From Bacteroidota bacterium (GTDB taxonomy: Bacteria > Bacteroidota > Ignavibacteria > UBA10030 > UBA8401), in the NCBI GenBank assembly GCA_035506275.1, contig DATJPT010000014.1, positions 23,736-87,735 of the forward strand: DNA of 64,000 bases, in the 5' to 3' direction. A program made the translations under genes and the position numbers. Positions 606 through 37,677 of this stretch are shown here, piece after piece; position 1 is the stretch's first letter, and every line of letters starts with the position of its first letter. Under the pieces are notes generated by a model. That model made no database searches. It saw nothing but the letters and a program-made list of their open reading frames with translations, and was not told where the DNA came from.

Positions 606-607
606 AT

Positions 608-2295: not shown

Positions 2296-2826
2296 TTAAG
2301 TGCCGCCTCGCAGTTCCCAAATCGGCGGATACTTCTTCCCGGTAATTAAATGATGAAGGCTTCTCAATGCAGAATTAATTTCTATCGGCACAATTTTCAA
2401 CTCATCAAGTGTCACAACTTCTACAGACGTTTTCAATTTTCCTCTTGCAGTACCAACACCCATCTCAATTTTTCCAGTTTGTTCATTTATTGTCATTCCA
2501 TTGTGCAAATAACGATTGCGCAATTTTTGAGCCTTCTTTAGTTCAACAATTGTCTCAGGGTACATTTTTAATCTTGGAAATTGTGGTATCAAGTATTCAC
2601 AAAGCGATGATAACATGTCAAGTTTTTGTGGGAAATTTGCGTGTGTTATCAAAATAAAATTCCTCATATCAGTCAAAGATTCAGAGCCAGCGAGTTTGGA
2701 AATATTCATATCTAGGGAAGATTCAAGATATGCCCACATTGTAGCAATGCGTCCCAACTCCATAAGGAATTCATTGGGAAGCGGCCAGCCATTTCTGTCA
2801 AATTCTGGAATTTTAGATTTAGTCAT
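2296..2826 (-). CDS. cassette ORF, hypothetical protein (last cassette of array; degenerate attC remnant downstream)
   Basis: ATG 4 nt after core site GTTAGGC (minus strand); downstream only a partial attC-like end (ttgagcgactggttaag at 2283-2297, overlapping the stop). Confidence 0.55.
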   Translation of the reverse strand: MTKSKIPEFDRNGWPLPNEFLMELGRIATMWAYLESSLDMNISKLAGSESLTDMRNFILITHANFPQKLDMLSSLCEYLIPQFPRLKMYPETIVELKKAQKLRNRYLHNGMTINEQTGKIEMGVGTARGKLKTSVEVVTLDELKIVPIEINSALRSLHHLITGKKYPPIWELRGGT

Positions 2827-2833
2827 TTTAGGC

Positions 2834-3017
2834 GCCTAACGGACCGGAGATAAGCTGCTGCGACGACCAGCCGCGACAAGGTAGCTCGTTGCGCGGACGT
2901 TCCAGTAGGGTGCTTCTAAGTCCGTCCCACAACGCCCGGCGAAATCGTCGACAGCTGGTTCGGTCAGTGAGCGCTTTTCGCCATCACGCTTTGCGTGACT
3001 TGAGCGACTGGTTAGGG
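2834..3017 (-). repeat. attC-like recombination site 1 (184 bp)
   Basis: left end GCCTAAC (RYYYAAC), right end GTTAGGG (GTTRRRY-like), imperfect internal inverted repeats with unpaired bases; right ~65 bp near-identical to the other copies. Confidence 0.7.
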
Positions 3018-3027
3018 CGCACACACG

Positions 3028-3885
3028 TCATGGTGGTTGGTGTAATAACAATTGAGCAAATTGAATTTCATTGCAAGCTTCTTGAAACCTGCCGGCAACT
3101 GCAAATTTTAATCTCGGATGGAAAGTCTTCGGACTAGTCCGAACAGGTAATTGCTTCAGGATATTTAATGTGAAGAAATGCGCACTTATATCATCTGCTT
3201 TTGTAAGAAGAACAATAATGCCAAAATGTGCATTTGGATAGTTTAATAGGTGTGGTTCGAACTTCTTCTGGAATTTATTCTTGATAATTGCGATTAAGCA
3301 TTTAATAGCTTCTTCATGATCATCAGATAGATAAGCACCTTGGCTTGGCACTAACTTCAGGTTTTTGCACTCTTCTAATTCCAGAGTTGGTGTGGTACAA
3401 TCAAGGAGCCAAATAGGTTGATCATTTGCATCAATAATGGCAACATCAGCGTTTGGAGGTGAGAGCCCTTTGCTTGGCTTCTGTAAGGGAAAATCAAATT
3501 TTATATTTAAGTTGGCCTTTTTTAATCGAGCCGCGAACCAGAGCTCTGATGCGGTGTCCCAGAATGAAGTGCTACCAATATTTGAAAGTTTATGACTTAT
3601 TTCCTTTTTGTCATTCTCAGTCAGCATTGGCAAAATTCTAGTTAGGCTCGCTTCGATATTTCTTAGATTCGTTCGGGGATCGTAAGCCGAGGGCGGGAAA
3701 TCGCTTGTGGCAACTAAGAGAGCTTCAAGCAAGTTGAATGGGCGATTTTTGTGACTTAGGGATAAGTCGATGATTCCATTGGATAACTGCGCTCGAATGC
3801 TTCCCCAATCTAAAATTTGATTAAGCTGGGGAAAACTCAGAGCGTTTCTTTGAGCGGTTTCTAGTTGTGAGTTAAATGCTGTCAT
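3028..3885 (-). CDS. cassette ORF, hypothetical protein (285 aa)
   Basis: stop 10 nt before attC-1 core; same orientation as all other cassette ORFs. Confidence 0.6.
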   Translation of the reverse strand: MTAFNSQLETAQRNALSFPQLNQILDWGSIRAQLSNGIIDLSLSHKNRPFNLLEALLVATSDFPPSAYDPRTNLRNIEASLTRILPMLTENDKKEISHKLSNIGSTSFWDTASELWFAARLKKANLNIKFDFPLQKPSKGLSPPNADVAIIDANDQPIWLLDCTTPTLELEECKNLKLVPSQGAYLSDDHEEAIKCLIAIIKNKFQKKFEPHLLNYPNAHFGIIVLLTKADDISAHFFTLNILKQLPVRTSPKTFHPRLKFAVAGRFQEACNEIQFAQLLLHQPP

Positions 3886-3927
3886 TTGTGCGCCCTAACG
3901 TACCGCGGTTAAGCTGCGGCGGCGAGA
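3886..3927 (-). repeat. half attC-like site (R''/L'' arm only)
   Basis: gcgccctaacgtaccgcggttaagctgcggcggcgag matches the left arm of the full elements, but no right arm; it fills the whole 42-bp gap between two cassette ORFs. Confidence 0.5.
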
Positions 3928-4620
3928 TTAACGCAAATACAGTTGATTTCTTGTCGTTAAATATTGGTAGACATAAGGTTTCTCCCTAAAGGCATCGACC
4001 TTAGATGTATCGACTTCATTCCCAAAATGGAGGAGAGTTGGTTTGATTCGAATTGAATCTATGCTCCATTTCATGTCCAGGGCATTCTTGTGTACTGCAG
4101 TGGGGAAGAAGGCATCGACGTCAAGTTCCTCAAAAGTGTTTGATGGTATTCGGAGAATTTGAGTTTGCTCACTCTCTTCGTTAGGGTCAAGATACCAATC
4201 CGTAAAGAGTCTGCCAGTAGACAAAAGAGTTCGATGTTTTCCAGTAAACCCTCTTTCCATAATTCCAAGGGGCTTGGCGAGAGCGGAATCGGCCATATAA
4301 ATAAAAGATTTGTCGTCCCGATTCTGATCATATTCAACATCACGTCCGTAGGCCGCCCAGACACTTGGGAGGAGCTCTACTCGGCGCGAGCTGGGATTCT
4401 TAATTGAGGCTTTCATTTCTACGATAAGAACGGAGGTCGATTGACCGTTAGTTTTCAGTGGATAGGCTCCAATTTTTTTCAACTCGAGGTGCGCAGTGAT
4501 ATTCGCTGGCTCGTTATACTCTTTGTACAAAAATATCGATGCAGCCCATATGCCAGCGACAATAATTCCAAGTGTCTGAACCCAAGTATTAATCTGTTCG
4601 CTAATTGATCGATTCGACAT
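3928..4620 (-). CDS. cassette ORF, hypothetical protein with N-terminal TM helix
   Basis: internal ATG at 4620 preceded by GGAGGA 9 nt upstream; the track start at 4647 is only 11 nt from the attC core, hence the revised start. Confidence 0.55.
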   Translation of the reverse strand: MSNRSISEQINTWVQTLGIIVAGIWAASIFLYKEYNEPANITAHLELKKIGAYPLKTNGQSTSVLIVEMKASIKNPSSRRVELLPSVWAAYGRDVEYDQNRDDKSFIYMADSALAKPLGIMERGFTGKHRTLLSTGRLFTDWYLDPNEESEQTQILRIPSNTFEELDVDAFFPTAVHKNALDMKWSIDSIRIKPTLLHFGNEVDTSKVDAFREKPYVYQYLTTRNQLYLR

Positions 4621-4657
4621 AAAGACAGTCCTCCGAATTAATTGCATGAATCTCGCC

Positions 4658-4832
4658 GCCTAACGGACCGGAGCTAAGCTGCGGCGACGTGCAACGTCGC
4701 CGCGGTAGTCATTCCGTGCGTGGTATGTCATGTCCGATAGTAACTCCCATTTGCGCGCACAAGATCGCCGACGGCTGGTTCCGTCAGTGAGCTCCAAAAG
4801 CGCCATCCGCCTTTAGCGTGACTTGAGGGATT
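4658..4832 (-). repeat. attC-like site 3 (right core degenerate, GTTATTC)
   Basis: GCCTAAC left core, conserved ctaagctgcggcg and ggctggttccgtcagtgag...cgtgacttgag blocks. Confidence 0.6.
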
Positions 4833-4864
4833 GGTTATTCCGCTAGCGCTTACTTTGTTATCAT

Positions 4865-5575
4865 CTACGGTGTCGGTGTGTACCCGCCACCACGAAGCCA
4901 ATGAACTTTCATATGATTCTTTACCAACTGGTCACCGATCTGAAAAGTGAGCTTTTCCATCCACTCTTCATCGAACACTTTGTCAAAGATCACCAAAAGT
5001 TGCTGAATCAGGTCATTGAGATTTTGAAAAACTAATTTCGCGTGTTTAGGACTCAGTTCAAACGGATTAAAAGGGATTTGTGTATGTGGCCAGTAATTTT
5101 TCCCATGTAACACTTTAAGGTCGGGAGCATAGTCATCTTCTGAAGAAATATAAAGTCCAAGGCGTTGCGCATCCAGATAAATTCCGGTTTTTGGATGTAC
5201 CCATGAATTCCTAATTCTTACAAGTTCAACGAAAGTTTGAAATACATTTCCAGCTTTATCAAAACCTTTGGTCGAGACTTCCACCCCGCAGAATTTTGGA
5301 GCCAATAACCACTTTTCTGGAAGGCTTAGTTTATCAATGGCTTTGAAAGTGTCATCACCAACTTTGCCAATGTAGAATTCGGAATAAACCTTATTGATCA
5401 ACGCCTCACTGGCAAAAACAGTAGAAAGAAGGCAATGCCGTGCAAAATAGGAAATTAGCTTCCCTTTTTGATCTTTTGTGAATTCTTCTTCAGCAAGTTC
5501 CAAGAATTTTTCCGCATCTCTGTAGTGCACGTAGAAGAAATTTAGCTCAATCTTAGCTTCTAGATTAGGAGGCAT
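4865..5575 (-). CDS. cassette ORF, hypothetical protein (236 aa)
   Basis: ORF between attC-like sites 3 and 4, same orientation. Confidence 0.55.
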   Translation of the reverse strand: MPPNLEAKIELNFFYVHYRDAEKFLELAEEEFTKDQKGKLISYFARHCLLSTVFASEALINKVYSEFYIGKVGDDTFKAIDKLSLPEKWLLAPKFCGVEVSTKGFDKAGNVFQTFVELVRIRNSWVHPKTGIYLDAQRLGLYISSEDDYAPDLKVLHGKNYWPHTQIPFNPFELSPKHAKLVFQNLNDLIQQLLVIFDKVFDEEWMEKLTFQIGDQLVKNHMKVHWLRGGGYTPTP

Positions 5576-5640
5576 GGATTAATCGTCTGTAAGTATGGTT
5601 TCTTTACCGAGCCGCCTGCGGTTTTGTAGAAGCGCAAGCG

Positions 5641-5792
5641 GTATAACAGACCGGAGCAAAGCTGCGGCGGTGAACGGCTGCCACCAGTTAGTTCGTTGCG
5701 GAGACCTTCCAGCCAGAAGTGCTAAATCCGGCCAACAACGCGCGACGAAATTGTCTACGGCTGTTTCCGCCCGCTTGAATACCGGTTAGTGC
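5641..5792 (-). repeat. attC-like site 4 (diverged; cores GTATAAC / GTTAGTG)
   Basis: retains ccggagcaaagctgcggcgg and inverted gcaagcgg/ccgcttga arms but is shorter and has degenerate cores. Confidence 0.5.
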
Positions 5793-5804
5793 GCAAAATA
5801 TTGA

Positions 5805-6206
5805 TCATGGTTGATTCATGCAATATTTATCCCACCATTTAGAGAGAATTCCGGGCGGAATCGATCCATTAAGGTCCCGTATTCTGCGAAGTTCTCGACA
5901 AATGCATTTCTTAACAGCTACAGTAGCGCTATCAACTTCATTAGGAAGATAGCCGTCTTCATCCACAAGCACATCATTATAGCTAGTCCAACAACGCTCA
6001 ACACGCACCTGCATGTTATTAAGCACATCGACTGGCACTAAATTTTCAAGTTGCGTTGCCTCCAATTGTAACTGCCGGTCAGAGTTGATCTTTGGATATG
6101 TTTCTTTAAATGCATTGTTGGCTTTCTTTCTATCTCTTAGAGTAGCCCAAAGATCAACGGCTTGCATTGTAGCCGATATGCCTGCGATGATTATTTCAGC
6201 TGCCAT
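5805..6206 (-). CDS. cassette ORF, hypothetical protein (133 aa)
   Basis: ORF between attC-like sites 4 and 5. Confidence 0.5.
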   Translation of the reverse strand: MAAEIIIAGISATMQAVDLWATLRDRKKANNAFKETYPKINSDRQLQLEATQLENLVPVDVLNNMQVRVERCWTSYNDVLVDEDGYLPNEVDSATVAVKKCICRELRRIRDLNGSIPPGILSKWWDKYCMNQP

Positions 6207-6239
6207 CAGAACCTCCCGTAAAATGTTTTTTTGTTTTGC

Positions 6240-6390
6240 GCCTAACGAACCGGAGCTAAGCTGCGGCGCGGTGCAGCCAGTTCCATGTAAAATATACGCG
6301 CGGCAGACGTCGCCTTTTCCCTCAAAAACTATTTTCGCGCGCGGCGAAGAGCTGGCCGCTGGTTCCGTCAGCTTGAGCTGCTGGTTAGGC
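6240..6390 (-). repeat. attC-like site 5 (151 bp)
   Basis: GCCTAAC ... GTTAGGC; conserved ccggagctaagctgcggcg block. Confidence 0.65.
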
Positions 6391-6419
6391 AGCGGCTCGA
6401 ATTAAGTGTTGTGCACCGG

Positions 6420-7184
6420 CTAGTACATGTTCTTGTAGATGCTTGAAATGTCCTCCGTGATTTCGAGATAAGGCTTGGCCACCGCAAACAAGGCACCGAC
6501 CGAAACCAACAAGAACGCCAGTACCATAAGGACGGCCGTGACCTGGTAATCGAACTGTGTCCATGCTTCAGCACCCGCCTTGAAGAGGATTGTCATGCTG
6601 ACACCAATGGAGGCAGCCAGACCCAAGTAGGCTTGCACAGTTATTTTTAGATATTTGTCAACTTCTGATTTAAGATAAGAAATGTAGTCTCGCTTCTTTT
6701 GGAACTCTGATAGTCTCTGGCAAACAGCGACTTGATTTTTTATGTCGGCGAAGAAAAACTGTGCGAGAAGATAACCGCACAGTGTTCCGGTGAAAATGAC
6801 AGACCACACTACATTGATTATGCCAAAGCCCATAAAGCGCATGACGCTGACACTTGATAGTAAATTGGCTAAAGACGTCAGGAGAGAATTGTAAAATAGG
6901 TGCGGAATCGTCGTGACGAGGAAGATTTCAATTGCGCTCGACAGAGCAATTATCAAAAATGCGATATTCCAATTTCGGGCAACGACAGGATCGATGGTAA
7001 GGTATACACTGCCATTCAATAATGGTTTGCTGAAGAAGTAGACAGCAAGGCAAAGATTAATGTAGAGAACAGCAAATGCCTTGTTCTGTGCGTATTGATT
7101 TGAAGCATAGCTCGGGTAAGAGATCACAATCGCAAGCAACGCTATATAAGAAATTGTCAATGGTACAATGCCGAAGAGGTTCAT
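6420..7184 (-). CDS. cassette ORF, polytopic membrane protein (~6 TM)
   Basis: hydrophobic segments throughout; start revised to ATG at 7184 because the track start (7244) lies inside attC-6. Confidence 0.55.
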   Translation of the reverse strand: MNLFGIVPLTISYIALLAIVISYPSYASNQYAQNKAFAVLYINLCLAVYFFSKPLLNGSVYLTIDPVVARNWNIAFLIIALSSAIEIFLVTTIPHLFYNSLLTSLANLLSSVSVMRFMGFGIINVVWSVIFTGTLCGYLLAQFFFADIKNQVAVCQRLSEFQKKRDYISYLKSEVDKYLKITVQAYLGLAASIGVSMTILFKAGAEAWTQFDYQVTAVLMVLAFLLVSVGALFAVAKPYLEITEDISSIYKNMY

Positions 7185-7211
7185 GGGTTCTCGAAATATT
7201 TGGGTTCTGCT

Positions 7212-7395
7212 GCCTAACGAACCGGAGTTAAGCTGCGGCGGCAAAAAGCCGCCGCAAGGTAGCTCGTTGCGCGGACGTATCCGTTGATCATATCTTTTCC
7301 AGCGTACTATCGCGCGGCGAAATCGTCGACGGCTGGTTCGGTCAGTGAGCGCTTTTCGCCATCACGCTTTGCGTGACTTGAGCGACTGGTTAGGC
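7212..7395 (-). repeat. attC-like site 6 (184 bp)
   Basis: GCCTAAC ... GTTAGGC; nearly identical to site 1 over both ends. Confidence 0.7.
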
Positions 7396-7403
7396 GGTTG
7401 CAC

Positions 7404-8126
7404 CTAGATCCAAATAGCGTATGGCTTGATTTGAAACGATTCTATTTTGGGTATTGGAAAAAGTATTCCGAAAACGTTCAACGGAATATTTTCACCTGAA
7501 TATCCGGAAAAAAAGAATGCTTCGTGACGCGAAAAAGAGTGAAGACTCCCTTCGCTACTAGGAAATTTAGAAATGCTTGCAGCCATAGCTAATGGGACCT
7601 TAATTTCTTTGAAATAATTGTCAGAATATTTGTAGTTGTCAAGTTTCTTGTCTTTTTCAAAGTAGACATAACCAACGGAATTGATATTTTCGATAGCTCG
7701 TCGTCGGTCGCCATAAAACTGGGGAGCGTCGAAAGTGGATTTAACAAGAATATATACGGGACCATCTGACAATTTAGTTGCTTTAGATGCCTCGCCGAGA
7801 TTATCAAATAGACTAGGAGGAGAAATAGAAGAGAGTTTGTTTACGAGCCCACCCAAAAGATTTTCCGCTTTAATTTCAATCCGGACACTCTCATTTATAG
7901 ATTTTGATTTTGTGAACTCCCCAGTGCCATCAAGTTCCAAAAGTCGGAAGAGCGTACCGAGTGCTTTTGCTAAACCTATTTTTGCACCCAGCTTGCCTGC
8001 ACTTTGTTTGCCTTCTCCCTTTGTAATTTCTACTGGAACCCCTTGCTCAATTTGAGCGTAGAGGCTTCGGATTCCTTCTTCGTCAAGGTAAATGAATCGG
8101 CGTGGTATTTCAAGCATAGAGATCAT
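7404..8126 (-). CDS. cassette ORF, hypothetical protein
   Basis: ATG at 8126 preferred; the track start at 8153 is a TTG abutting the attC. Confidence 0.5.
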   Translation of the reverse strand: MISMLEIPRRFIYLDEEGIRSLYAQIEQGVPVEITKGEGKQSAGKLGAKIGLAKALGTLFRLLELDGTGEFTKSKSINESVRIEIKAENLLGGLVNKLSSISPPSLFDNLGEASKATKLSDGPVYILVKSTFDAPQFYGDRRRAIENINSVGYVYFEKDKKLDNYKYSDNYFKEIKVPLAMAASISKFPSSEGSLHSFSRHEAFFFSGYSGENIPLNVFGILFPIPKIESFQIKPYAIWI

Positions 8127-8155
8127 GGTTCCGTCTATATGTTTTGAGTGCAACC

Positions 8156-8339
8156 GCCTAACGGACCGCAGCTAAGCTGCGGCAACGTGCAGCCAGTTCC
8201 ATGTAGAATATACGCGCGGCAGACATCGCCATTTCCCTAAATAAATTTTTCAGGCGCGCGGCGAAATCGCCAACGGCTGGTTCCGTCAGTGAGCGCTTTT
8301 CGCCATCACGCTTTGCGTGACTTGAGCCGCTGGTTAGGC
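8156..8339 (-). repeat. attC-like site 7 (184 bp)
   Basis: GCCTAAC ... GTTAGGC; conserved ends. Confidence 0.7.
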
Positions 8340-8360
8340 AGCCCATCGGTATGATACAAG

Positions 8361-8831
8361 CTATCTCTTATTCGGATTATGAAGAAGCATAGACACTTTT
8401 TCGACTACCCAAAAGAATAATGGAATCTCAGACATTAAAGCAAGCTGTCCAAAGATAGGGAAGTATGTCTTGAGATCCCCAGGACTTTCGTAGTGAAGAT
8501 AAATTGTAATCCCTATCCAAGCGAAGACAGGTAGCAGGCCGACAAAAATATAGAATACGATTCCGATAATGATTGTTGCGAGACTTTGTTGCTCAAACGT
8601 ACTCTTATCTTCCGGAAGACGGCGAGGCAGTAAGAGAATTACTCCGGCAACAAGCAAGGCAAAACCGGCTGATGTCGTCGAAAACTTCCCGCCAAAGAAT
8701 TCAAAATTGAGTCCAATCTCCCCTGTACCAGAAATACCTTTCCATAGGAAAGCTATCGAAGAAAGACATAGAATGGCACCGACAATGGTTCGGACTATTG
8801 TTATTTGTTTATTGAAATTTGATTCATCCAT
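8361..8831 (-). CDS. cassette ORF, small membrane protein (4 TM)
   Basis: hydrophobic helices; ATG at 8831. Confidence 0.5.
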   Translation of the reverse strand: MDESNFNKQITIVRTIVGAILCLSSIAFLWKGISGTGEIGLNFEFFGGKFSTTSAGFALLVAGVILLLPRRLPEDKSTFEQQSLATIIIGIVFYIFVGLLPVFAWIGITIYLHYESPGDLKTYFPIFGQLALMSEIPLFFWVVEKVSMLLHNPNKR

Positions 8832-8854
8832 ATGGCACAATGTTTTTTGGGGCT

Positions 8855-9960: not shown

Positions 9961-10242
9961 TTGCTCACTCTGATGAGAATATTTAATCATGGTGATCAAT
10001 CTCTGTATTCAGCCTCCGTGTGCCCTAACTATGATTAGATTGCATATGCAGGTATGCGCTGGTTTTTAGTGTGATATATTGCTCCCTGTAGGATAGATAA
10101 TAGAATAATTGAGGGATAGTCCGGTAGGTTTTTGAACGCCCCCTCGCGATTGTCTCTGCTGCAAAACTACGGCAATTCAAATACAGATGCAACTTTAGAA
10201 GGGAGCCGAATGATGGAAGTGTAATGATGGAAAAATGAAGAA

Positions 10243-10283
10243 AACAAAAAAGCCCGACGTGGGGGGACGCCGGGCTCTGACCC
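10243..10283 (-). terminator. rho-independent terminator
   Basis: minus strand gcccggcgtcccccc/acgtcgggc hairpin followed by ttttttgtttt, downstream of the T9SS gene. Confidence 0.6.
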
Positions 10284-10472
10284 TTTCTAGGTGCGACGCT
10301 CAGGGGAGGAAGCGTCACACAGGTCATTTGAATGAAAATATGAAAACGTATTTTGTTTGTCAAGAAAAATAAGACGATGTTTCGTCCGCGCTCATCACTC
10401 CCGCATAGAAACTTACTTCAGGAGTTCCATCTTACGCGTCTGGACAAATTCTCCGGACTGCAACCGGTAGAA

Positions 10473-12608: not shown

Positions 12609-12896
12609 ATGTCGATTCAAACATATAAAAAGATTCCGAATCTTCTCAGGAAGTATCGTAGGATCCGGGGTCTCAATCAAAAAGAGATCGCTGCCATTCT
12701 GGGCCTGAGGAGTGCCAGCCTTGTATCGAGGTGGGAGAAAGGTCGCTGCATTCCAAGTCTCATGAACGCGATCCGGCTAGCGATCCTCTGCCGGAGCATG
12801 GTCGATGCGCTCTTCTTCGATCACGTGAGAGCGCTGCGCGTGGAAATCCGTGATCGGGAGGAAAGGGTTCTCGGGACAAAGAATTCCAACCAATGA
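12609..12896 (+). CDS. XRE-family HTH transcriptional regulator
   Basis: LNQKEIAAILGLRSASLVSRWEKG HTH_XRE-like motif. Confidence 0.6.
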   Translation: MSIQTYKKIPNLLRKYRRIRGLNQKEIAAILGLRSASLVSRWEKGRCIPSLMNAIRLAILCRSMVDALFFDHVRALRVEIRDREERVLGTKNSNQ

Positions 12897-13573
12897 ACGG
12901 AATAGCGCCACAAAATGATATCAGGAAAATGGAAGACGGGGGATGGTATTGGGTCTCAAAACCAGTGATCCAGGAATATGCCCCGAAAGTCGGGTTTCTT
13001 TCTGCGTGCGTTTACCACCTCTTGGCCAGCATGGCCGACGAGAACCAGAGTTGCTATCCGTCTCAGCGCTACATCGCGGAAAAACTCGGCTGCTGCCGGT
13101 CATCCGTGTCGAGAGCCGTGAGAAAGCTAAAGGATCAGGGCCTTATCAGATCCAACGGAAAGGGGAGGGATCACTCCGTTTATCAGCTTCTGAAAGTCAG
13201 AAGTTGCACCAGTGCAATTCAGGTGTCGCACCGGTGCAATTCAGATGATGCACCAGTTGACACTAACAATACTAGTTTAACAAGAAATAATAACAACAAT
13301 GTTGTTAGTGTAAAAAAAATTAACCGACGAACGGATTCTAATGAAGAATTCAAACCGCAGACGAAAGAGGAACTCCTGGCGTTGGAAATCGCTCAGACAC
13401 TCGGTGATCCAAGGAATCCCCGGAAATATCTGCAATATACCAAGCGTTATGCCGAATCACTGCTCAGGGAGGTGTTATCTCAGGTAAAACAAACCCCGGA
13501 AGAGAAAATCAAAAAGAGCCGCGTCGCGCTCTTCGTCTACCTCGTAAACCACTATGCAAAAAGATCAGCTTAA
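12893..13573 (+). CDS. winged-helix/HTH_36-like protein (phage or plasmid replication-associated type)
   Basis: YPSQRYIAEKLGCCRSSVSRAVRKLKDQGLI motif typical of replication-initiator-type HTH domains; Asn-rich linker; overlaps neighbours by 4 and 20 nt (operon). Confidence 0.5.
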   Translation: MNGIAPQNDIRKMEDGGWYWVSKPVIQEYAPKVGFLSACVYHLLASMADENQSCYPSQRYIAEKLGCCRSSVSRAVRKLKDQGLIRSNGKGRDHSVYQLLKVRSCTSAIQVSHRCNSDDAPVDTNNTSLTRNNNNNVVSVKKINRRTDSNEEFKPQTKEELLALEIAQTLGDPRNPRKYLQYTKRYAESLLREVLSQVKQTPEEKIKKSRVALFVYLVNHYAKRSA

Positions 13574-14057
13574 TATTTTGGCGATCAACCCTGGCAGCCG
13601 GTATCTCGGCATCGCCATCTTCGTCGGAGACGAACTCCGCGATTGGGCGGTAAAGCTTGCCAGGCGGGAGAATATTCGGGAGATGATTTCGGAATATATA
13701 AATCAGTATGGTGTTCACGTTGTCGCGTTCAAGAAATTCCATCCTTCGAGAAGCTCCCGTGATCTTCGCATGATCATCTCTTTGATGCAGGAGGTCGCAA
13801 AAAAGGCCGGACTCGCGCTTCGTGAGTACTCCATCGGCGAAGTAGAAGAGGCATTGCTGCCGGAGAAGAGAAAGAACAAGCAGCTCCTGATGCAAGAAGT
13901 CGTCGCTCGATATCCCTTCCTATCGAACGAGCTTCAGCGGGAAGCGAAAAACAAAAACCCTTATCTGATTCGGATGTTTGAAACCGTCGGGATTGGGAAG
14001 GTTTGTATGAGTGAACTTGAGACTGGTGTCCGAAAGGTCGAAAAAAAACAATTATGA
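13554..14057 (+). CDS. RuvC-like resolvase paralog, catalytically degenerate
   Basis: ILAINPGSRYLGIAIF aligns with RuvC N-terminal motif but has Asn in place of the first catalytic Asp; second acidic residue and the H/D pair also missing. Confidence 0.5.
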   Translation: MQKDQLNILAINPGSRYLGIAIFVGDELRDWAVKLARRENIREMISEYINQYGVHVVAFKKFHPSRSSRDLRMIISLMQEVAKKAGLALREYSIGEVEEALLPEKRKNKQLLMQEVVARYPFLSNELQREAKNKNPYLIRMFETVGIGKVCMSELETGVRKVEKKQL

Positions 14058-14063
14058 GCGAAA

Positions 14064-14561
14064 ATGAAGAAAGCAAAAAAGATACTCGCAATTGATCCAG
14101 GGACAAAACATCTCGGTTTCGCCTTGCTAGAAGGATCTGCGCTGATTCACTACGGGGTGAAGACAATTTCGGATGGGAGAACAGGGCAATTCCGTTTGGT
14201 CCAAGGGAGAGCGATCGTTTCAAGATTGATTGAAGACTTCAATCCGGATATCCTGTTTGTCGAGAAAACATATTTTGGAAATAACAAGGACTCGAAGACC
14301 TTGAATCAGCTTACAGAGCAGATTCGAAGAATGGGATTGAAAAAGGGGGTTATAGTCCAAACCATCGCAACGAATTCGGTGAGAAAAATTGTGTGTGGTA
14401 ACGGGGAGGCAGGTAAAGAGGATGTCGCGAAAGCGATGGTATCGAAATATCCGGAGCTTCGGCCATATCTCACTTCGGACAGGCGATGGAAGGAAGAATA
14501 TCACCGGAATATGTTTGACGCGGTGGCACTTGGATTGGCCGGCTGCGGATTGGTCAAATAA
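14064..14561 (+). CDS. ruvC: crossover junction endodeoxyribonuclease RuvC-like (catalytic residues intact)
   Basis: ILAIDPGTKHLGFALL (Asp), ILFVEKTYFGNN (Glu), HRNMFDAVALGLA (His/Asp); 165 aa. Confidence 0.6.
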   Translation: MKKAKKILAIDPGTKHLGFALLEGSALIHYGVKTISDGRTGQFRLVQGRAIVSRLIEDFNPDILFVEKTYFGNNKDSKTLNQLTEQIRRMGLKKGVIVQTIATNSVRKIVCGNGEAGKEDVAKAMVSKYPELRPYLTSDRRWKEEYHRNMFDAVALGLAGCGLVK

Positions 14562-15350: not shown

Positions 15351-15908
15351 ATGATTGGACTCACGGTCTTTACATTATTTGTTTTTTTTGTTATCGCGTT
15401 GATACGCCCCAAAAAACCGGTGATCGTCTCGCACTGGCATAATCTGATCCAGGGGCTTCAATTCTCGGTCGAAGACTACTACAATGCGCTCGACGCGGTG
15501 ATCGAGAAGCGAAAAGTTCCGGAAGTAAAGGTCGAGGTCACGCATTATCGTGAGGGTGGAATCGCGTCGGCGAAAAGGATGTACTTGAGGATTGGCCGGC
15601 GAGATCACATTTTCGATGTCTGTGCCGCTCCGTTTGGGACGGATTTCTTTGTTTCTTGGTGGCTGGGGCAAAACATGAAAACCATGGGCGCTATCATCAA
15701 CGGGCTCCCGTTCATCGGCCCTCCGCTGATCAGATTGTTCAGTCCCGAAACGTTCTACCGCATAGACACGGCTCTCATGTTTCAGGATTCGGTGCATCAG
15801 GCCGTTCTTGAAGTTCTCGACGACAGGATCAAGGGGCAGGGACTCCGTTCGATGACGGAATCGGAACGGAAACCGATCATGCGCGAACTCTTCAAACAGA
15901 GGAGGTAG
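15351..15908 (+). CDS. membrane-anchored hypothetical protein (gene 1 of ATPase module)
   Basis: single N-terminal TM helix; ends 4 nt before the next gene. Confidence 0.45.
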   Translation: MIGLTVFTLFVFFVIALIRPKKPVIVSHWHNLIQGLQFSVEDYYNALDAVIEKRKVPEVKVEVTHYREGGIASAKRMYLRIGRRDHIFDVCAAPFGTDFFVSWWLGQNMKTMGAIINGLPFIGPPLIRLFSPETFYRIDTALMFQDSVHQAVLEVLDDRIKGQGLRSMTESERKPIMRELFKQRR

Positions 15909-15912
15909 GCAG

Positions 15913-18900
15913 GTGGGAGACTTTTATGCGGAAGAATTAACAAAGCAATTCTACGACTGGGAAGTGAAGGGGAGGGGCTGGCTCTTGTGGGATTCGACGA
16001 TTGAGCTCGAGCCTCCGTTCCAGCCGTTCCAATTCCATGCATCGCGCAGGGACGATCTCTTCATCGACGACGGCCGCAAATCGACCTTCCTCAGTAATCT
16101 GGCCGATGATCTTAAAAAGGCGTTCGGGAATGGGCCAAAGATGGAGCTGCCAGCGGAACCGGCGGCGGAGATCATGCCGACCGTCGATTCCGATGAGAGC
16201 GAATTGATAGAATTCGCCGTCACGCTCCCTTCCAACAGCGAATTGTCGCACGAATACGCCGAGCATTTTCTCCTTAGCCTAAGTTCCTGCTCTTCTCCCG
16301 TCAGCTTTGAGATTCTCGGAACGGAGGGTGCGATCATCGTCCAGTTCAGTTGCCGCGAGCGGGACGTTCGGTACGTGAAGCAGCAAATCAGGTCTTTCTT
16401 TCCCGATGCAACCGTCCAGGAGAAAAAATCATTTGCCGCAATCCTTGCCGAAGGTCACACCGTAATCGCCGATTGCGGGTTGAGCGATGAGTTCATGCGG
16501 CCGCTCCGCACGTATAAGAATTTCAGTCCCGACACGCTCACCACGATCTTCGGCGCTCTGGAGAATCTGGGACAGGGCGAGGTCGGCCTCGTGCAGGTTC
16601 TTTTCAAAGCGGCCGAGGCTCCCTGGGCATTGAGCATTCTGCGGGCGGTGCGGAACAACGACGGCAGTTCCTTTTTTATCGACGCGCCGGAAATGGTTGA
16701 TCTTGCGGAACAAAAAATCGACCGGCCCCTCTTCTCGGTGATTCTCCGCCTTGTCGGACAAAGCCTTTCAAGCGAACGCGCCTGGGACATCGTGAGAGAT
16801 CTTTACGCTGGGCTCCATCCGTTCACGGATCCTGCCTCCAATGAACTGATTCCCCTCACGAACGATGACTACGACGATGCGCTGCATTTCTATGACGTGA
16901 AAAATCGCACGTCCCACCGCAGCGGCATGCTTTTGAACAGCGACGAATTGCTCGGTCTCGTTCATCTTCCCTCGCCTTCGATCCATTCCTCAAAGCTCAA
17001 GCGGGATTCGGGGAAGACAAAAGCGGTTCCTTCCATTGCACGGGGGCACGCATTTGTTCTCGGTGAAAACCTCAACCGCGACTTAAAGACGAAAGCTTCT
17101 TTAAGCGTCGATCAAAGGCTCCGTCATGTTCATATCATTGGCAAAACGGGGACCGGAAAATCCACCCTCCTTCTCAATATGATCAAACAGGACATCGAAG
17201 GCGGAAGAGGAGTCGCCGTGCTCGACCCGCACGGGGACCTCGTGGAGAAGATCGAAGAAATTGTTCCCGAGAGAAGATTGGATGACGTGATTCTCTTTGA
17301 TCCAAGCGATGCCGGATATCCTGTCGGCTTCAACATCCTTGAGGCCCGTTCCGACATAGAGCAGACCGTTCTCTCATCCGATCTTACGGAACTCTTCCGG
17401 CGCTTCTCGACGAGCTGGGGAGACCAGATGACAACCGTCTTATCGAACGCGATTGAAGCGGTGCTCGGCAGCATGGAAGGTGGGACGCTGCTAGAGCTGA
17501 AACGGTTCCTCTTGGAAAATGATTTTCGCCGCTCTATCCTCCGGGCCGGAGCCGATCCTGCCGTTATTTACTTTTGGGAGAAAGAGTATCCGCTTTTAAG
17601 AGGTGGCTCACAGATATCGATCATCACGCGGCTCGACGCGATTCTGCGTTCAAAGATCGTCCGCAATATCGTGGCGCAGAGGGAAGGGCTTGATTTCAGG
17701 AAGATCATCGAGACCGGAAAAATATTCCTGGCAAAGCTCCCGCAGGGAATCATAGGCGAAGAAAATTCTTACCTTCTCGGCTCGCTCATAGTTTCCAAGT
17801 TGCACCAGGCGGTCATGGGCAGGCAGGCAATGAGCGTAAGCGAACGCACGCCGTTCTTTCTGTATATCGATGAGTTCCAGAATTTTGCGACTCCTTCCAT
17901 GATCTCGACGCTTTCAGGTTCACGAAAATACGGTTTTGGTTTGGTCTTGGCGCATCAGGACCTTCACCAGATCGCGGACGCAGCCTTGGAGAATTCGGTG
18001 ATCACGAACCCTTCGACACGCATTTGTTTTGCGTTGGGGGACAACGATGCCCAAAAGCTGGCATCGGGTTTCACTCACTTCGACGCGACGGATTTGATGA
18101 ATCTCGGCGTGGGGGAGGCAATCGTCCGGGTGGAGCGGAGCGACTATGATTTCAATCTCAAAACCTACGAAGTAACTCCGGTAGCGCCCGAGACGGCTTC
18201 AACGAGGCGTGAGAAAATAATCGCATTTACGAGAGAGCGGTACGGGCGCAAAGTGTCGCCTGTGGAGACCCAGAAGCCTCAAACCGAAACACCGCAACCG
18301 CAAAGTACCCCGGTCGAAATAAACCGAGCGCCGCAGCCGCGAGTCAAACCGAAAGAGGAGGACACTCCGAAACCGAGGCCAACTCCACCGCCTCAACGAG
18401 ACTCGATTCCTTCCGGCGATCTTACGGCACGCAAGGACATTTCGCAGCACCGGTATTTCCAAACCTTGGTCAAAAAGATGGCCGAACAACGCGGCTATAA
18501 GGCCGTGATTGAAGAGCCGAGCGGTGACGGCGGGCGGGTGGATGTCGGTTTGGAACGGGATGGAAAACGTATTGCCGTTGAAATATCTGTCACGACAGGA
18601 GATGTACAAGAGCTTCATAATATAGAGAAGTGCCTCAAGGCGGGATATAATCCGGTCGTCGTTTGTTCAACGGACAAGAAGAACCTTGAGGCGATTAGGA
18701 AGCTGATGACAGAGAAGCTGCCACCTTCTGACCAGAGCAAAGTGCTTTTCTTCGAGCCTGAAGGGCTGTTCCTTTTTCTTGATAAACCGGGGGCTGTGGA
18801 GGTCACGAGCGAACAGAAGTTTAAGGGATACCGTGTCAAAGTGCACTATCAGGCCGTTTCCGAAAGTGAGAATAGGAGGAGGCGTGAAACGGTTGCCGAG

Positions 18901-18945
18901 GTCATCGGCCAAACATTAAAACGAATAAAGAAGGGTGCAAAGTGA
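15913..18945 (+). CDS. FtsK/HerA/TraD-superfamily P-loop ATPase with unknown N-terminal domain, Pro-rich linker and C-terminal Hjc-like PD-(D/E)xK-fold domain
   Basis: Walker A IIGKTGTGKST, VAVLDPHGD, Walker B FFLYIDEFQNF, GSRKYGFGLVLAHQD; linker PQTETPQPQSTP...PRPTPPP; C-terminal GRVDVGLERDGKRIAVEISVT resembles the Hjc core (VDLVA...IEVK). Confidence 0.6.
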   Translation: MGDFYAEELTKQFYDWEVKGRGWLLWDSTIELEPPFQPFQFHASRRDDLFIDDGRKSTFLSNLADDLKKAFGNGPKMELPAEPAAEIMPTVDSDESELIEFAVTLPSNSELSHEYAEHFLLSLSSCSSPVSFEILGTEGAIIVQFSCRERDVRYVKQQIRSFFPDATVQEKKSFAAILAEGHTVIADCGLSDEFMRPLRTYKNFSPDTLTTIFGALENLGQGEVGLVQVLFKAAEAPWALSILRAVRNNDGSSFFIDAPEMVDLAEQKIDRPLFSVILRLVGQSLSSERAWDIVRDLYAGLHPFTDPASNELIPLTNDDYDDALHFYDVKNRTSHRSGMLLNSDELLGLVHLPSPSIHSSKLKRDSGKTKAVPSIARGHAFVLGENLNRDLKTKASLSVDQRLRHVHIIGKTGTGKSTLLLNMIKQDIEGGRGVAVLDPHGDLVEKIEEIVPERRLDDVILFDPSDAGYPVGFNILEARSDIEQTVLSSDLTELFRRFSTSWGDQMTTVLSNAIEAVLGSMEGGTLLELKRFLLENDFRRSILRAGADPAVIYFWEKEYPLLRGGSQISIITRLDAILRSKIVRNIVAQREGLDFRKIIETGKIFLAKLPQGIIGEENSYLLGSLIVSKLHQAVMGRQAMSVSERTPFFLYIDEFQNFATPSMISTLSGSRKYGFGLVLAHQDLHQIADAALENSVITNPSTRICFALGDNDAQKLASGFTHFDATDLMNLGVGEAIVRVERSDYDFNLKTYEVTPVAPETASTRREKIIAFTRERYGRKVSPVETQKPQTETPQPQSTPVEINRAPQPRVKPKEEDTPKPRPTPPPQRDSIPSGDLTARKDISQHRYFQTLVKKMAEQRGYKAVIEEPSGDGGRVDVGLERDGKRIAVEISVTTGDVQELHNIEKCLKAGYNPVVVCSTDKKNLEAIRKLMTEKLPPSDQSKVLFFEPEGLFLFLDKPGAVEVTSEQKFKGYRVKVHYQAVSESENRRRRETVAEVIGQTLKRIKKGAK

Positions 18946-19482: not shown

Positions 19483-21276
19483 ATGAATGAAGACATTGAT
19501 GCGCGGGCAATTCTAGAATTGCCATTTGTAAAACGGTTGATTTGGGTTTTGCAATTGTTCACACTAATGGTAGGCGGCCTCTTAATCTACGTATCATCAA
19601 TTTTCGCCTCCACTCCTACCAAAGCCATACTTTTCTTTTTTGGGCTCTATATTTTCTTCCTTGGCCTACTCAGCATATTTAACAGATTTTCATATTTTTT
19701 TATCTCTGCAAAACACATAAAGGTTATAGCCGCTGCTCTTGCGGCATGGCCGACGATTGCATTCTTTCTCATACCACCCGGAACATTTCGTTGGCTGATA
19801 AGTGCAGGGATTGCATTTGCGTACGCAAGCCTCCTTCTTGTTTCTGGGATGATGTGGTTCTTTTTTGAACGCTTCTTCCCCGGCCAATACTATAAGAGCT
19901 ATCAATCAGGAGAATACAGTGGCTGGAGTGCCGTTGGCGTGGTTGTCCTTGAGCACGGAGCTCCTGGATTCTACGGTCTCAAAATTCTTCGCAAACTCCG
20001 GACGGCAATCATGATGCAAGCGATGAATACTCCATTCTTTTTTGTAAATGTAGATTCATTCGGGAGGCGTTCAACAGATTTAACGCTTGAGGCCATAAAT
20101 CGAACTCAGGCATTACTATTGATTGTTTCCGCCAAGGATCGGCCCTCAAACGAATTCAAATTGACGATACAGAATTATATGAGGATCTGCACCGGCCGAA
20201 TTTTTGTCATTCAGGTGGAATCAACTCTTAAGATATCTACAAGCATTTTCGAAGGTCGGGGGATACAGACTTTCAATTTTCTTCCTTCATCAGAGGAAGC
20301 GGATCGACAGAGGATTTCAAGCATTATTTCAGAATTGACCAATGGACTGACCTCAACGGCAATCCCAATTGGCAAATCGGATGATGAACTTCCATCTGAA
20401 CTTCTACTCCAAATTAGATTGCTTTCCACGGAAGGAATCCCATGCCTGGCTAACAACTACTTAAGATTCAGGCTTTCACAAAGCAATACAGAAAGGTTTC
20501 TGAATCTGCTAGATTGTATCGAGGTTATTCTTAAACTCTCGGTCATGTATCTTTCCGTAAGCCAATGGACAAGAGCTGCGGCCAATAATGCATATAGATA
20601 CGACCTTGACCAGCCCGGGTTGGGACGTTGGATAGACTTGGTCAAAACGCTCGTTCCCGCAAGCACCAATGACGATATCATTCAGTGCATTAAAAATTTT
20701 CTGAGGCAGTCCCCGCACGAGGTTGCCAAAAAAGTGATAGAGGATATTTCGGTTGAAGGTTTGAAATGGACCGGTTCGCAGCCGACGACTTATCTGGAAT
20801 GGCTGAAATGGTTCCGGTGGATTCGCAACATTACGCGCGGTCATGGCACGGTGGAAGAAGATCAAATTGCCGCCCACTGGCATGGATTTCACGCCATTTT
20901 TTTGGATATGGTTTTGAGACTTGACCCATTGCTCATCAAATGCTCATTCGTTCCATCAATGAAACCATTTGATGCGAATGTTATTAAGGGATGGCAACGT
21001 ACGTCAGACGTCACAGGTACCGCACATGAAGAAGATCACTCGTGGGAGCCGCTATCTCTTATCGTAAAGAAGGAAGACACGAATGTCAGTTATTCGGTTT
21101 ACCCCTTCGCGATATTGAAGGCTGGGGATGTCCTTTTCTGGAACGGAGCAAAAAAAGGAATTGTCGAATACATGAATTTTACCTCAGGCAAGCCTCACGC
21201 CTTTGATGATTTCCAGGGCACGAAACCTTACGATTTGTGGAAATCAAAAAATGCCCAGTACATCGAATTGAAATAA
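19483..21276 (+). CDS. membrane protein: N-terminal 4-5 TM helices plus ~450-aa cytoplasmic domain of unknown function
   Basis: hydrophobic helices between residues 17-130; no catalytic motif recognised. Confidence 0.45.
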   Translation: MNEDIDARAILELPFVKRLIWVLQLFTLMVGGLLIYVSSIFASTPTKAILFFFGLYIFFLGLLSIFNRFSYFFISAKHIKVIAAALAAWPTIAFFLIPPGTFRWLISAGIAFAYASLLLVSGMMWFFFERFFPGQYYKSYQSGEYSGWSAVGVVVLEHGAPGFYGLKILRKLRTAIMMQAMNTPFFFVNVDSFGRRSTDLTLEAINRTQALLLIVSAKDRPSNEFKLTIQNYMRICTGRIFVIQVESTLKISTSIFEGRGIQTFNFLPSSEEADRQRISSIISELTNGLTSTAIPIGKSDDELPSELLLQIRLLSTEGIPCLANNYLRFRLSQSNTERFLNLLDCIEVILKLSVMYLSVSQWTRAAANNAYRYDLDQPGLGRWIDLVKTLVPASTNDDIIQCIKNFLRQSPHEVAKKVIEDISVEGLKWTGSQPTTYLEWLKWFRWIRNITRGHGTVEEDQIAAHWHGFHAIFLDMVLRLDPLLIKCSFVPSMKPFDANVIKGWQRTSDVTGTAHEEDHSWEPLSLIVKKEDTNVSYSVYPFAILKAGDVLFWNGAKKGIVEYMNFTSGKPHAFDDFQGTKPYDLWKSKNAQYIELK

Positions 21277-21322: not shown

Positions 21323-21760
21323 TCATCGTTCAGTCCTACCGTCGCCTGAAAGAATCTCCGTAAAGAATAGCTCCAGCCTTGTTTTGAGTTTTCCTGTCGG
21401 AAAACTTTCATCTCTTTCCCACCGCCCCAGCGTTCCCGGATCGACGTTCAATTCAAGGGCCAACGCCCGCTGGCTCATTCCACGGACGTGCCTGTACGTG
21501 ACGATCTTCTGCCCGGTCGTTTGTCCGTGGAAGAGCGGAGGGGTGTAGCCGAGGAATTGTGTTAGCCTAGGTATCAGGTGCACCATGGGATCTGTCCGGG
21601 CCCTCTCCCAATCATAAACCGAGGTTTCAGCGACTTTCCAGAATTTGAACTACTTCTCGTCGCAGAAGTCCCAGCTCAAGCTGCTGCTTATTGATATTAT
21701 CTCCCCAGGTTTTAGAATTTGTCGAAATTCCCGAGGTTTTCGAGAAACGAGGATGATATA
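21323..21760 (-). pseudogene. tandem-HTH (XRE-type) regulator, frameshifted copy
   Basis: C-terminal half (MVHLIPRLTQFLGYT...) intact; N-terminal HTH is homologous to the 41-kb copy but carries a 1-nt insertion creating an in-frame TAG. Confidence 0.55.
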
Positions 21761-22922
21761 GCAAAAAAGGCCACCCAAATCTGAATGGTAAGTCCACTCA
21801 TCCTGATGAACAATGCCTGCAATTTGCCCGACGGGATTACCAAGGGGTGGATTAATTCTGTTCTTGAGTGCACCATTTTTCACCTTCCAATAAGTTTGTT
21901 CGCATATTACCCTATCATCCTTGGTGAGCGCGATTGGAGGCGTTAACATAAACTGACTGAATTATGGTATCTCGGCTGCGTTCTCCCATGCGTACATCGT
22001 TGGTGCCCAGACTAAATGTCTTTCCAAGCGCTAATTTTTAGGAGGTGGACGCGAGCATGCGGGTTAAATTCTCAAAATCATACGGCCAGTTTGCTGTTGG
22101 ACCAGGCTTCAGTTATCTCAATAATCCATCCATTTTAGTGGAGATTTCTCCATTTCCATCGGCGAAGGGGATATATAATGTAGAGGAGAATTTACCAGGA
22201 TTCGAATATGGGTCGGTCCAAATCGACTATCATTTCACTATACAAGTCACGGAGGTGACGTATGGAAAGATTGGTATCGCCTCGAGTTAGTGTATTGATG
22301 CCGTTGTTGATCATTGCCTGCATGATTTCAGTTGTGCCGACAAATAGTAAAGATAAAGATTACGCTCATGGGGCAGACCACATCGTCACCGATTAGACTA
22401 CTTTGGTAAACATAGTTGATATTAAGAAAAATGAGAAAACAAATTGGCAACCCGTACTGAATTGGTTCTATGGGCCGATTGAAGACGAGCACCTACCTGA
22501 TCTCATCATTTTTATCAATAAGGTGGGTAATAAGGACACTGTTACGATGCAACTTCTCAAGGGGGAAAGGGCGTGGATCACCTTTGGGAGGAGCCATACA
22601 TTTATGTTCTTGTCTTGGCTACTCATGATTTGAATATTCATGATTCCACAATGGTCTATAAATCCTATTCAACCTTCACTCTTAAAGATACTCGATCCCA
22701 GAAGGACTCACTTATGACTCGTCAGCGTACCTTCCCGGTAGACCCTACAGATTCATCCGTGGCTTTCATCATGACAAGAAACGTGCTTAACTATCAGACA
22801 CCCCCAACGCGCTGGCCTTAAGCTCAATCCTGGGATTTGCCGCCTCACTAGTTGGTGGCACGCACCTTGGTAGTGAGGCAAATCAACCCAGCCCTGTATC
22901 GGATTCATCAATTAAGATCCGC

Positions 22923-31907: not shown

Positions 31908-32390
31908 TTAATATGTCCCTCCGTCCACTGAATGAATCTCCCTGAAGAACGGCTCAAGTCTTAATTTGAGTTTTCCTTTTGGAGAACTTTCATCTCTTTC
32001 CCACCTTCCCAATGTCCCCGGGTCGACTCTGAGAATGAGGGCCAATGCGTGTTGGCTCATTCCCCGGACTTGCCGGTACGAGACGATCTTCTGTCCGGTC
32101 GTTTGTCCGGTGAAGAATGGAGAGGTGTAGCCGAGGAACTGGGTTATCCGGGGTATCAGGTGCACCATGGGTTCTCTCCGGCTCTTTTCCCAGTTGTATA
32201 CCGTATTCGTTGATACTTTCAGCAACTGGGCAACGTGCGTTGCCCCCCATCCGAGTTGAAGCCTTCTCTTTTTTATATGGTCTCCTACCGTCTTCGGCGG
32301 TTCGGTATATTGCATTTTTTGAGGTATTTTGGCCAAAAGACGGATATGGCAAAAGGCAACGCAGGGATGTCGGTGAGGAAATTGCAGCAA
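31908..32390 (-). CDS. tandem-HTH (two XRE-type HTH domains) regulator, intact copy of a repeated family
   Basis: HIKKRRLQLGWGATHVAQLLKVSTNTVYNWEKS and MSQHALALILRVDPGTLGRWERDES; homologues at 21.3, 38.5 (fragment) and 41.0 kb. Confidence 0.6.
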   Translation of the reverse strand: MLQFPHRHPCVAFCHIRLLAKIPQKMQYTEPPKTVGDHIKKRRLQLGWGATHVAQLLKVSTNTVYNWEKSRREPMVHLIPRITQFLGYTSPFFTGQTTGQKIVSYRQVRGMSQHALALILRVDPGTLGRWERDESSPKGKLKLRLEPFFREIHSVDGGTY

Positions 32391-37068: not shown

Positions 37069-37070
37069 TC

Positions 37071-37535: not shown

Positions 37536-37677
37536 TCCACACCGTGATCGTATTTTCTTACCGTTCTACTTCGCCCACGGATCATCCAGGCCCTCACAAC
37601 ATTTTTGGATTCGACAAAGTAAAAAGCGAGATCATAATTACAGAATAATATTTTCAAGATGTTGCACTATCTGAGGT

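Follow-up and report, generated by a model that had tools for sequence, protein, structure and literature searches.

A candidate biological-conflict cassette pairing a small, variably membrane-associated protein with a predicted VirB4-architecture ATPase that carries a nuclease-fold domain

VirB4 (TrwK) is an inner-membrane ATPase of type IV secretion systems (T4SSs) and has a small membrane partner, VirB3 (TrwM). In the HerA-DUF4297, Sir2-HerA and HerA-NurA systems, an FtsK-HerA ring ATPase works together with a nuclease of the PD-(D/E)xK type or of another kind, a logic shared with the locus described here. The closest model to this locus in the defence library is mad8, a gene of the experimentally supported defence system MADS (bioRxiv 10.1101/2023.03.30.534895). 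Here we analyze a 64,000-nucleotide (nt) stretch of a Bacteroidota bacterium assembly (GCA_035506275.1, contig DATJPT010000014.1, positions 23,736 to 87,735 of the forward strand; hereafter the window), in which a 185-amino-acid (aa) gene designated c1 precedes a 1010-aa gene designated c0, whose product is predicted to combine a VirB4-type N-terminal domain, a P-loop ATPase domain and a C-terminal nuclease-fold domain. The reading we favor, and to which we give roughly even chances, is that c1 and c0 would make up a two-gene cassette, autonomous and horizontally mobile, of the biological-conflict type, acting in defence or in competition between elements.

The c1-c0 pair and its two proteins

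All open reading frames (ORFs) of 87 related loci, 80 obtained by scanning the GTDB species representatives and 7 by looking up contigs, were clustered together with those of the window. In 83 of 85 loci a c1 homologue directly precedes c0 on the same strand, at a median gap of about 4 nt, and c1 is the only universal neighbor of c0. The spacing suggests translational coupling of the two genes. The pair is obligatorily co-encoded and moves as a unit of two genes across many backbones and phyla: intact copies accompany a serine recombinase, a tyrosine integrase, a block of XRE, HTH_36 and RuvC genes or a set of Replic_Relax, primase, ArdC and RadC genes, and others stand alone amid ordinary chromosomal genes. 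An earlier sequence-only reading of the window had placed three ORFs here, all of which were recovered by our ORF check at the coordinates it gave. It had c0 ending 4 nt after the small gene, when in fact it is the start of c0 that falls 4 nt past the c1 stop codon; and of the three-gene neighborhood that it described, the c1-c0 pair recurs in the related loci but the downstream 597-aa gene does not.

The GTDB representative set contains at least 588 species with the pair, spread over more than 10 phyla that include Bacteroidota, Acidobacteriota, Verrucomicrobiota, Planctomycetota, Chloroflexota and Patescibacteria. Because public data hold an identical c0 protein and 2757 relatives (counted as protein clusters at 90% identity), most and indeed nearly all of them about 1000 aa long and conserved end to end, c0 is a genuine gene. 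Relatives that are 49-79% identical over their full length belong to Bacteroidota, Ignavibacteriota, Patescibacteria, Planctomycetota, Chloroflexota, Nitrospinota and further groups, and the N-terminal domain is matched at E<=1e-30 by 616 clusters (at 50% identity). The distribution is patchy, with phyla crossed at 40-55% identity, and some metagenome-assembled genomes carry two copies (loci L023 and L055; L024 and L038). Cultured carriers, namely Lacibacter luteus TTM-7 (L054, NZ_SDHW01000006.1) and two Mucilaginibacter strains (L067 and L071), make experiments feasible. Relatives are currently annotated as 'type IV secretion system DNA-binding domain-containing protein', as 'HerA-like ATPase' or as hypothetical, with the N-terminal domain entered as a domain of unknown function, DUF8128, on which a literature search returned no papers. 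The architecture is described neither in the defence library nor in the literature searched on VirD4-like and VirB4-like ATPase-nuclease defence systems, and the family is large and unstudied.

Judged by its sequence, the c0 product is an ATPase of VirB4 architecture whose catalytic site is intact. Its N-terminal domain has the VirB4-type fold, and the statement of the sequence-only reading that this domain is unrelated to the motor is thus not upheld. Pfam CagE_TrbE_VirB gives no match to the 1010-aa protein at E<=1, and a profile search of the Protein Data Bank (PDB) with the N-terminal domain alone returns chance-level matches only. The ATPase domain matches Pfam TrwB_AAD_bind (PF10412; 9e-12, 45 bits against a cut-off of 20.5, aa 396-717), DUF87 (aa 392-500) and TraG-D_C (aa 647-717), as well as PADLOC mad8 (domain-level, 2.6e-22), and there is a match to PHROG 5156 (2.5e-63). 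Searched against the PDB, the family profile finds DotL (6e-8) and TrwB (2.6e-6) ahead of HerA (0.015) and DptH (0.057). The NCBIfam models for TraD, VirD4-like, TrbC, CedD, VirB4 and HerA proteins give weak matches that fall far under their cut-offs (SXT_TraD, 40 bits against 366; TIGR00929 VirB4_CagE, 24 against 643; HerA model NF040819, 19.8 against 970). These PDB-profile matches and sub-cut-off scores place the ATPase, by sequence comparison, in the coupling-protein/VirB4 branch of the FtsK-HerA superfamily and outside any named family. Of the HerA/VirD4 type assigned earlier, the coupling-protein side therefore stands, but membership of the HerA family does not, since only the generic DUF87 P-loop region passes. 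Across a 30-sequence family alignment the mean column identity is 61% and invariant residues occur in each domain; those of the ATPase include G410, G413, G415, K416 and T418 in Walker A and D653 and E654 in Walker B. The strings IIGKTGTGKST, VAVLDPHGD, FFLYIDEFQNF, GSRKYGFGLVLAHQD and GRVDVGLERDGKRIAVEISVT, quoted in the earlier reading, are all present in the translation. A hydropathy scan gives no transmembrane (TM) segment, in line with the earlier claim that N-terminal TM helices are lacking, and the Pro/Gln/Thr linker is likewise found (aa ~782-836, 15 Pro per 55 residues).

The C-terminal domain has the alpha-beta-beta-beta-alpha-beta core of the PD-(D/E)xK fold. Invariant in the family are H846, Q850, E867, D877, E890, E900, N903 and K906, of which D877 lies on strand 2, E890 on strand 3, and E900, N903 and K906 on the next helix. 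The acidic signature residues D877 and E890 are thus kept, and the residue two past E890, canonically a lysine, is S892, as the earlier reading had noticed. The invariant K906, E900 and N903 may compensate for S892, a pattern compatible with a relocated lysine. The domain resembles the nuclease domains of the defence proteins Upx, Can2 and Hna. Its supposed likeness to Hjc holds at the level of the PD-(D/E)xK fold but no further, Hjc being the closest family neither by structure nor by sequence; a PDB profile search with the C-terminal domain gave chance-level matches only.

The c1 protein of the window has one N-terminal hydrophobic or TM helix (aa 1-27 in the hydropathy scan), followed by a soluble-looking conserved core (SHW..., REYLR, FDICAAPFGTGFFVSWWL, TYY..DT..MF, ERKP) with a hydrophobic FFVSWWL motif. 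It matches nothing in Pfam, NCBIfam, PADLOC or PHROG, a PDB profile search with it stayed at chance level, and all 894 of its relatives are annotated 'hypothetical'. In the Bacteroidota group, to which the window copy belongs, the TM helix is N-terminal; acidobacterial and planctomycete members have it as a central insertion, and further members lack it. Because of this variation, membrane association is plausibly a recurrent rather than a fixed feature of the family, and the earlier description of a membrane-anchored partner fits the window copy but not the family at large.

Genomic context and candidate roles

Neighbors were counted within 10 kb over 81 loci, of which 56 carry a mobile-element hallmark and 25 carry none. 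A large serine recombinase is found in 30 loci (directly downstream in ~14-17), an ATPase-only paralogue of about 430 aa, designated c0short, in 24, an XRE regulator in 15, RuvC-like genes in 11, a full-length or nearly full-length comM in 10, a tyrosine integrase in 9 and RadC in 8; a comM 3' fragment, an HTH_36 replication-initiator-like gene, Replic_Relax, primase and ArdC occur in 7 loci each. Among the immediate neighbors (n=139), integrases are the commonest, with 15-18 serine recombinases and 7-9 mad8-like ATPases, and there are about 10 DNA methyltransferases and a few matches to GajA, AriA, PglX, Mrr and AbiL. T4SS channel genes are absent from the recurrent and the immediate neighbors, the largest neighbors included. 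An XRE/HTH_36/RuvC block lies upstream of the pair in loci of Bacteroidota, Patescibacteria and Anaerolineales, and the compact six-gene order XRE-HTH_36-RuvC-RuvC-c1-c0 recurs in three or four phyla; on the 13-kb contig of L009 the order is SerRec-XRE-HTH_36-RuvC-c1-c0.

The c0short protein is coupling-protein-like, matches PADLOC mad8 and is 30-39% identical to aa ~380-790 of the 1010-aa protein. Its gene often lies directly upstream of c1, which yields a three-gene arrangement (L014, L037, L042, L044, L051, L054, L057, L060, L072 and others), and in Verrucomicrobiota loci the genes after it are Replic_Relax, primase, ArdC and RadC. The window has no copy of it.

A conflict or defence role is favored because the pair is autonomous, keeps company with defence genes in several loci and resembles validated systems that join a motor to a nuclease (mad8 in MADS, the HerA-nuclease systems and Upx). 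Its autonomy follows from its occurrence intact where element genes are lacking nearby and from the heterogeneity of the backbones that it accompanies. As for its company, in one locus the pair lies near Patatin, Endonuclease_NS, caspase and Kiwa KwaA/KwaB genes, in another near PAPS_reduct, GHKL ATPase, DEAD helicase and PLD genes, and in further loci near Eco57I with an OLD-family nuclease, near GmrSD or near TCAD9 (L088). The methyltransferase, GajA, AriA, PglX, Mrr and AbiL matches counted above are of the same kind, and the island of the window itself carries a putative XamI-type restriction-modification pair. By analogy with VirB4 and TrwB, the ATPase would assemble as a ring, which c1 would hold at or near the inner membrane, occupying the place of VirB3 on the VirB4-type N-terminal domain. 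The ring would load onto or translocate DNA at the expense of ATP, and the tethered nuclease domains would cut the DNA so engaged, the likely substrate being incoming or replicating foreign DNA of a phage, a plasmid or a rival element.

Several observations weigh against this conflict reading. The nuclease activity predicted for the C-terminal domain is not assured because S892 stands at the canonical active-site lysine. PADLOC-DB v2 recognizes no known system here and matches neither c1 nor the 597-aa protein. The interpretation given in the sequence-only reading is, overall, supported in part. Flanking defence genes were seen in several loci, with crude ORF calling and with counts that carry no genome-wide background. 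The mean column identity, maintained end to end, is above what is usual for fast-evolving defence genes; most loci bear mobile-element hallmarks; in the lineage of the window the pair is a conserved backbone beside a variable slot rather than variable cargo; and a linked methyltransferase or other obvious means of self/non-self discrimination is not found.

Some of these points would be expected if the pair served the life cycle of the integrative element itself as a VirB3/VirB4-derived DNA-processing and pumping motor, the main rival explanation, which we regard as possible though rather unlikely. Such a motor might work like the single FtsK-like TraB of actinomycete integrative and conjugative elements (AICEs), or like a terminase whose ATPase and nuclease cut and move the DNA of the element once it has been excised and replicated. 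ATPases of the VirB4 family are a hallmark of conjugation, and the frequency of element hallmarks, the serine recombinase placed directly downstream in part of the loci, the recurrence of the six-gene block over several phyla, the retention of the pair with that block at 78% nt identity while neighboring cargo is swapped, and the frequent c0short gene upstream of c1 all argue for it. It is harder to reconcile with the 25 loci in which the intact pair has no element gene within 10 kb, with the heterogeneity of the accompanying backbones and with the lack of a linked channel, pilus or relaxase set; moreover, most hosts are diderm, where a lone cytoplasmic ATPase cannot export DNA. Viral sequences speak against a packaging version: full-length relatives occur in only 2 of 2.9 million viral contigs, and the phage and plasmid collections hold no full-length relative, only distant N-domain-plus-ATPase proteins that lack the nuclease, for example gp156 of Bacillus phage G and 'DUF87' proteins encoded on Bacillus plasmids. 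A role in virion packaging was rejected on these grounds. It is doubtful that the pair is a T4SS-free minimal DNA translocation apparatus, built from VirB3/VirB4 plus a nuclease, with which small comM-targeting elements move or process their DNA and spread among very distant phyla, Patescibacteria included; if true, horizontal transfer or membrane-coupled interception of DNA would here take a new form, outside the known conjugation types.

In about 20% of loci the pair adjoins a large serine recombinase on the same strand, which could also point to an FtsK-like accessory of the neighboring site-specific recombinase, one that might help to set directionality, resolve dimers or segregate the excised element, much as FtsK activates XerD. 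We consider this very improbable, since most loci, the window included, have no adjacent recombinase, some have tyrosine integrases instead, and the nuclease domain would be left unexplained. Most improbable of all is a conventional coupling protein (VirD4/TraD) or VirB4 belonging to a T4SS encoded elsewhere. The Pfam TrwB_AAD_bind and TraG-D_C matches, the naming of relatives at NCBI after T4SS DNA-binding proteins and the VirB4-like fold of the N-terminal domain speak for it. Against it stand the NCBIfam coupling-protein and VirB4 scores far under cut-off, the missing TM anchor, the absence of T4SS genes from the 64-kb window and from the flanks of the 81 loci, the presence of Replic_Relax in merely 7 of them, the occurrence of the pair in Patescibacteria, and a fused nuclease domain that is universal in the family and foreign to coupling proteins and VirB4s. 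The sequence-only reading, too, had judged a conjugative coupling role unlikely. The c0 product is, by its architecture, a VirB4-type motor that has been diverted from secretion systems and joined to a nuclease-fold domain, and the pair is a testable candidate either for a new system against foreign DNA or for a new DNA motor carried by mobile elements.

The island around the pair

Near the right-hand end of the region that contains the pair, a 3' fragment of comM (Mg-chelatase/YifB) abuts a gene with two XRE domains, an arrangement found at the element end in other loci too, and the GC content changes from 0.448 across 2.3-41.4 kb to 0.513 past 42 kb. This junction and the GC shift imply that everything to the left of the junction belongs to an island inserted in comM, and thus that the pair lies in a large low-GC island of at least 2.3-41.4 kb. 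Three paralogous copies of the double-XRE gene, 80-87% nt-identical to one another over 270-360 nt, suggest that the island was tandemly accreted, with three element units at the same comM site. The window contains no integrase, serine recombinase, comM 5' fragment or tRNA gene, and direct repeats of the att type, sought on either side of the module, gave no convincing result. The positions of all features are collected in the table below.

Features of the c1-c0 locus and of the surrounding island (window positions)
Feature	Position (nt)	Strand	Remarks
XamI-family restriction endonuclease gene	27-605	+	Pfam 8.7e-84; at left of island; N-terminus cut by window edge
Eco57I/MmeI-type methyltransferase gene	563-2200	+	overlaps XamI gene
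Run of ~7 genes	2296-8840	-	almost no Pfam matches
XRE repressor-like gene	12609-12896	+	Pfam/PHROG; linked block, outside the core pair
HTH_36 replication-initiator-like gene	12893-13573	+	Pfam/PHROG; lambda O-like by PHROG
Three 22-nt direct repeats	13191-13257		head to tail, inside HTH_36 gene
RuvC-like gene 1	13554-14057	+	too divergent for Pfam; clusters with gene 2
RuvC-like gene 2	14064-14561	+	Pfam/PHROG
Partner gene c1	15351-15908	+	185 aa
Large gene c0	15913-18945	+	1010 aa, GTG start
N-terminal domain (aa 1-380)	15913-17052	+	Pfam DUF8128; VirB4/TrwK N-terminal-domain fold
P-loop ATPase domain (aa ~381-780)	17053-18252	+	T4SS coupling-protein/VirB4 class
Walker A GKTGTGKST (aa 410-418)	17140-17166	+	
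Walker B LYIDEF (aa 650-655)	17860-17877	+	
Pro/Gln/Thr-rich low-complexity linker (aa ~781-835)	18253-18417	+	weakly conserved, length varies
PD-(D/E)xK (restriction-endonuclease-fold) domain (aa 836-957)	18418-18783	+	invariant residues
D877 codon	18541-18543	+	
E890 codon	18580-18582	+	
K906 codon	18628-18630	+	
C-terminal tail (aa 958-1010)	18784-18945	+	beta-hairpin (KGYRVKV), basic helix, then stop; modelled with low confidence (predicted local distance difference test, pLDDT, 41-65)
597-aa gene, variable cargo	19483-21276	+	~4 N-terminal TM helices
Double-XRE gene, copy 1	21323-21949	-	frameshifted
Double-XRE gene, copy 2	31908-32390	-	
Run of ~7 genes	35799-40867	+	almost no Pfam matches
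Double-XRE gene, copy 3	41018-41470	-	
comM 3' fragment (aa ~353-511)	41445-41936	+	abuts double-XRE gene; enclosing interval 41301-41945

Between the window and L088, a stretch running from a 127-aa gene through the XRE and HTH_36 genes and both RuvC-like genes to c1 and c0 has about 78% nt identity, and the flanks differ. In this 79%-identical relative the slot after c0 (13112-20323 in L088) is filled by genes for a 1499-aa protein, a TCAD9/APH-domain protein and an NAD-synthase-like protein, which may form a ternary conflict system. In the window the slot is taken by the 597-aa gene, which lies between the ATPase gene and the HTH gene at the element end and encodes a protein with a large soluble C-terminal part. 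The multi-TM protein reported earlier is thus present, but it is not a conserved neighbor: searches of Pfam, PADLOC, PHROG and NCBIfam gave it no match, and it has no homologue in the 87 related loci. This absence, together with the different genes found at the same slot in L088, led us to reject it as a component of the system; a downstream Metallophos gene was likewise rejected as a third component, being common only to the close relative L088.

Within the linked block, the duplication of the RuvC-like gene after XRE and HTH_36 is also seen in Patescibacteria and other Bacteroidota loci. The HTH_36 gene contains three head-to-tail copies of a 22-nt repeat, TGMAAKTCAGRWGWYGCACCRG, two of which are kept in L088 and none of which was seen in more distant loci. 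By analogy with lambda, they may be iterons of an origin located within the initiator gene.

Elsewhere in the island, the XamI and methyltransferase genes look like a type II restriction-modification pair. In the two runs of about seven genes, one gene matches DUF6414 and another gives only a sub-threshold match to TctB. The intergenic stretches at 6242-6389, 8158-8295 and 10239-10363 are 84-87% identical to intergenic stretches of L088 (3760-3905 and 5195-5319), one of them occurring twice in the window, and the surrounding genes differ; these stretches may represent regulatory or repeat sequences of the island. Type IX secretion system (T9SS) sorting domains are found among the window proteins.

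Comparison with known systems

With VirB4/TrwK the 1010-aa protein shares the fold of the N-terminal domain. It differs in that the similarity lies under the family threshold, other T4SS genes are not linked to it, and a linker and a PD-(D/E)xK domain have been added; c1, for its part, shows no detectable similarity to VirB3, and the position of its TM helix is not fixed. The best sequence matches for the ATPase domain are the coupling proteins TrwB, TraD, VirD4 and DotL. Unlike these, the window protein lacks both an N-terminal TM domain and linkage to a relaxase or T4SS, and it carries in addition a VirB4-like N-terminal domain and a nuclease domain.

The mad8 protein and c0short belong to the same ATPase class as the 1010-aa protein but are merely ~310-450 aa long and lack both the N-terminal domain and the nuclease; MADS itself is an eight-gene, methylation-based system (mad1-mad8), and no other mad gene occurs in the window. 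In the HerA systems the ATPase and the nuclease are separate proteins, the HerA N-terminal domain is a HAS-barrel rather than a VirB4-type domain, and HerA models match the 1010-aa protein only around the P-loop. Upx and Hna are single-protein defence enzymes that join a nucleoside triphosphatase to a restriction endonuclease, with a motor of a different class. Compared with the cleavage domains of Upx, Hna, NucS, AF1548 and FokI, the C-terminal domain of c0 has Ser for the active-site Lys, an invariant Lys on the next helix and no relationship at the sequence level. The TraB protein of AICEs is likewise a lone ATPase of this superfamily, borne on a small integrative and replicative element with an integrase, a regulator and a Rep-like gene. 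It differs from the c0 protein in having its own TM domain and a C-terminal winged helix-turn-helix and in lacking a nuclease; unlike the hosts of AICE TraB, those of the c0 family are mostly diderm bacteria or members of the candidate phyla radiation (CPR).

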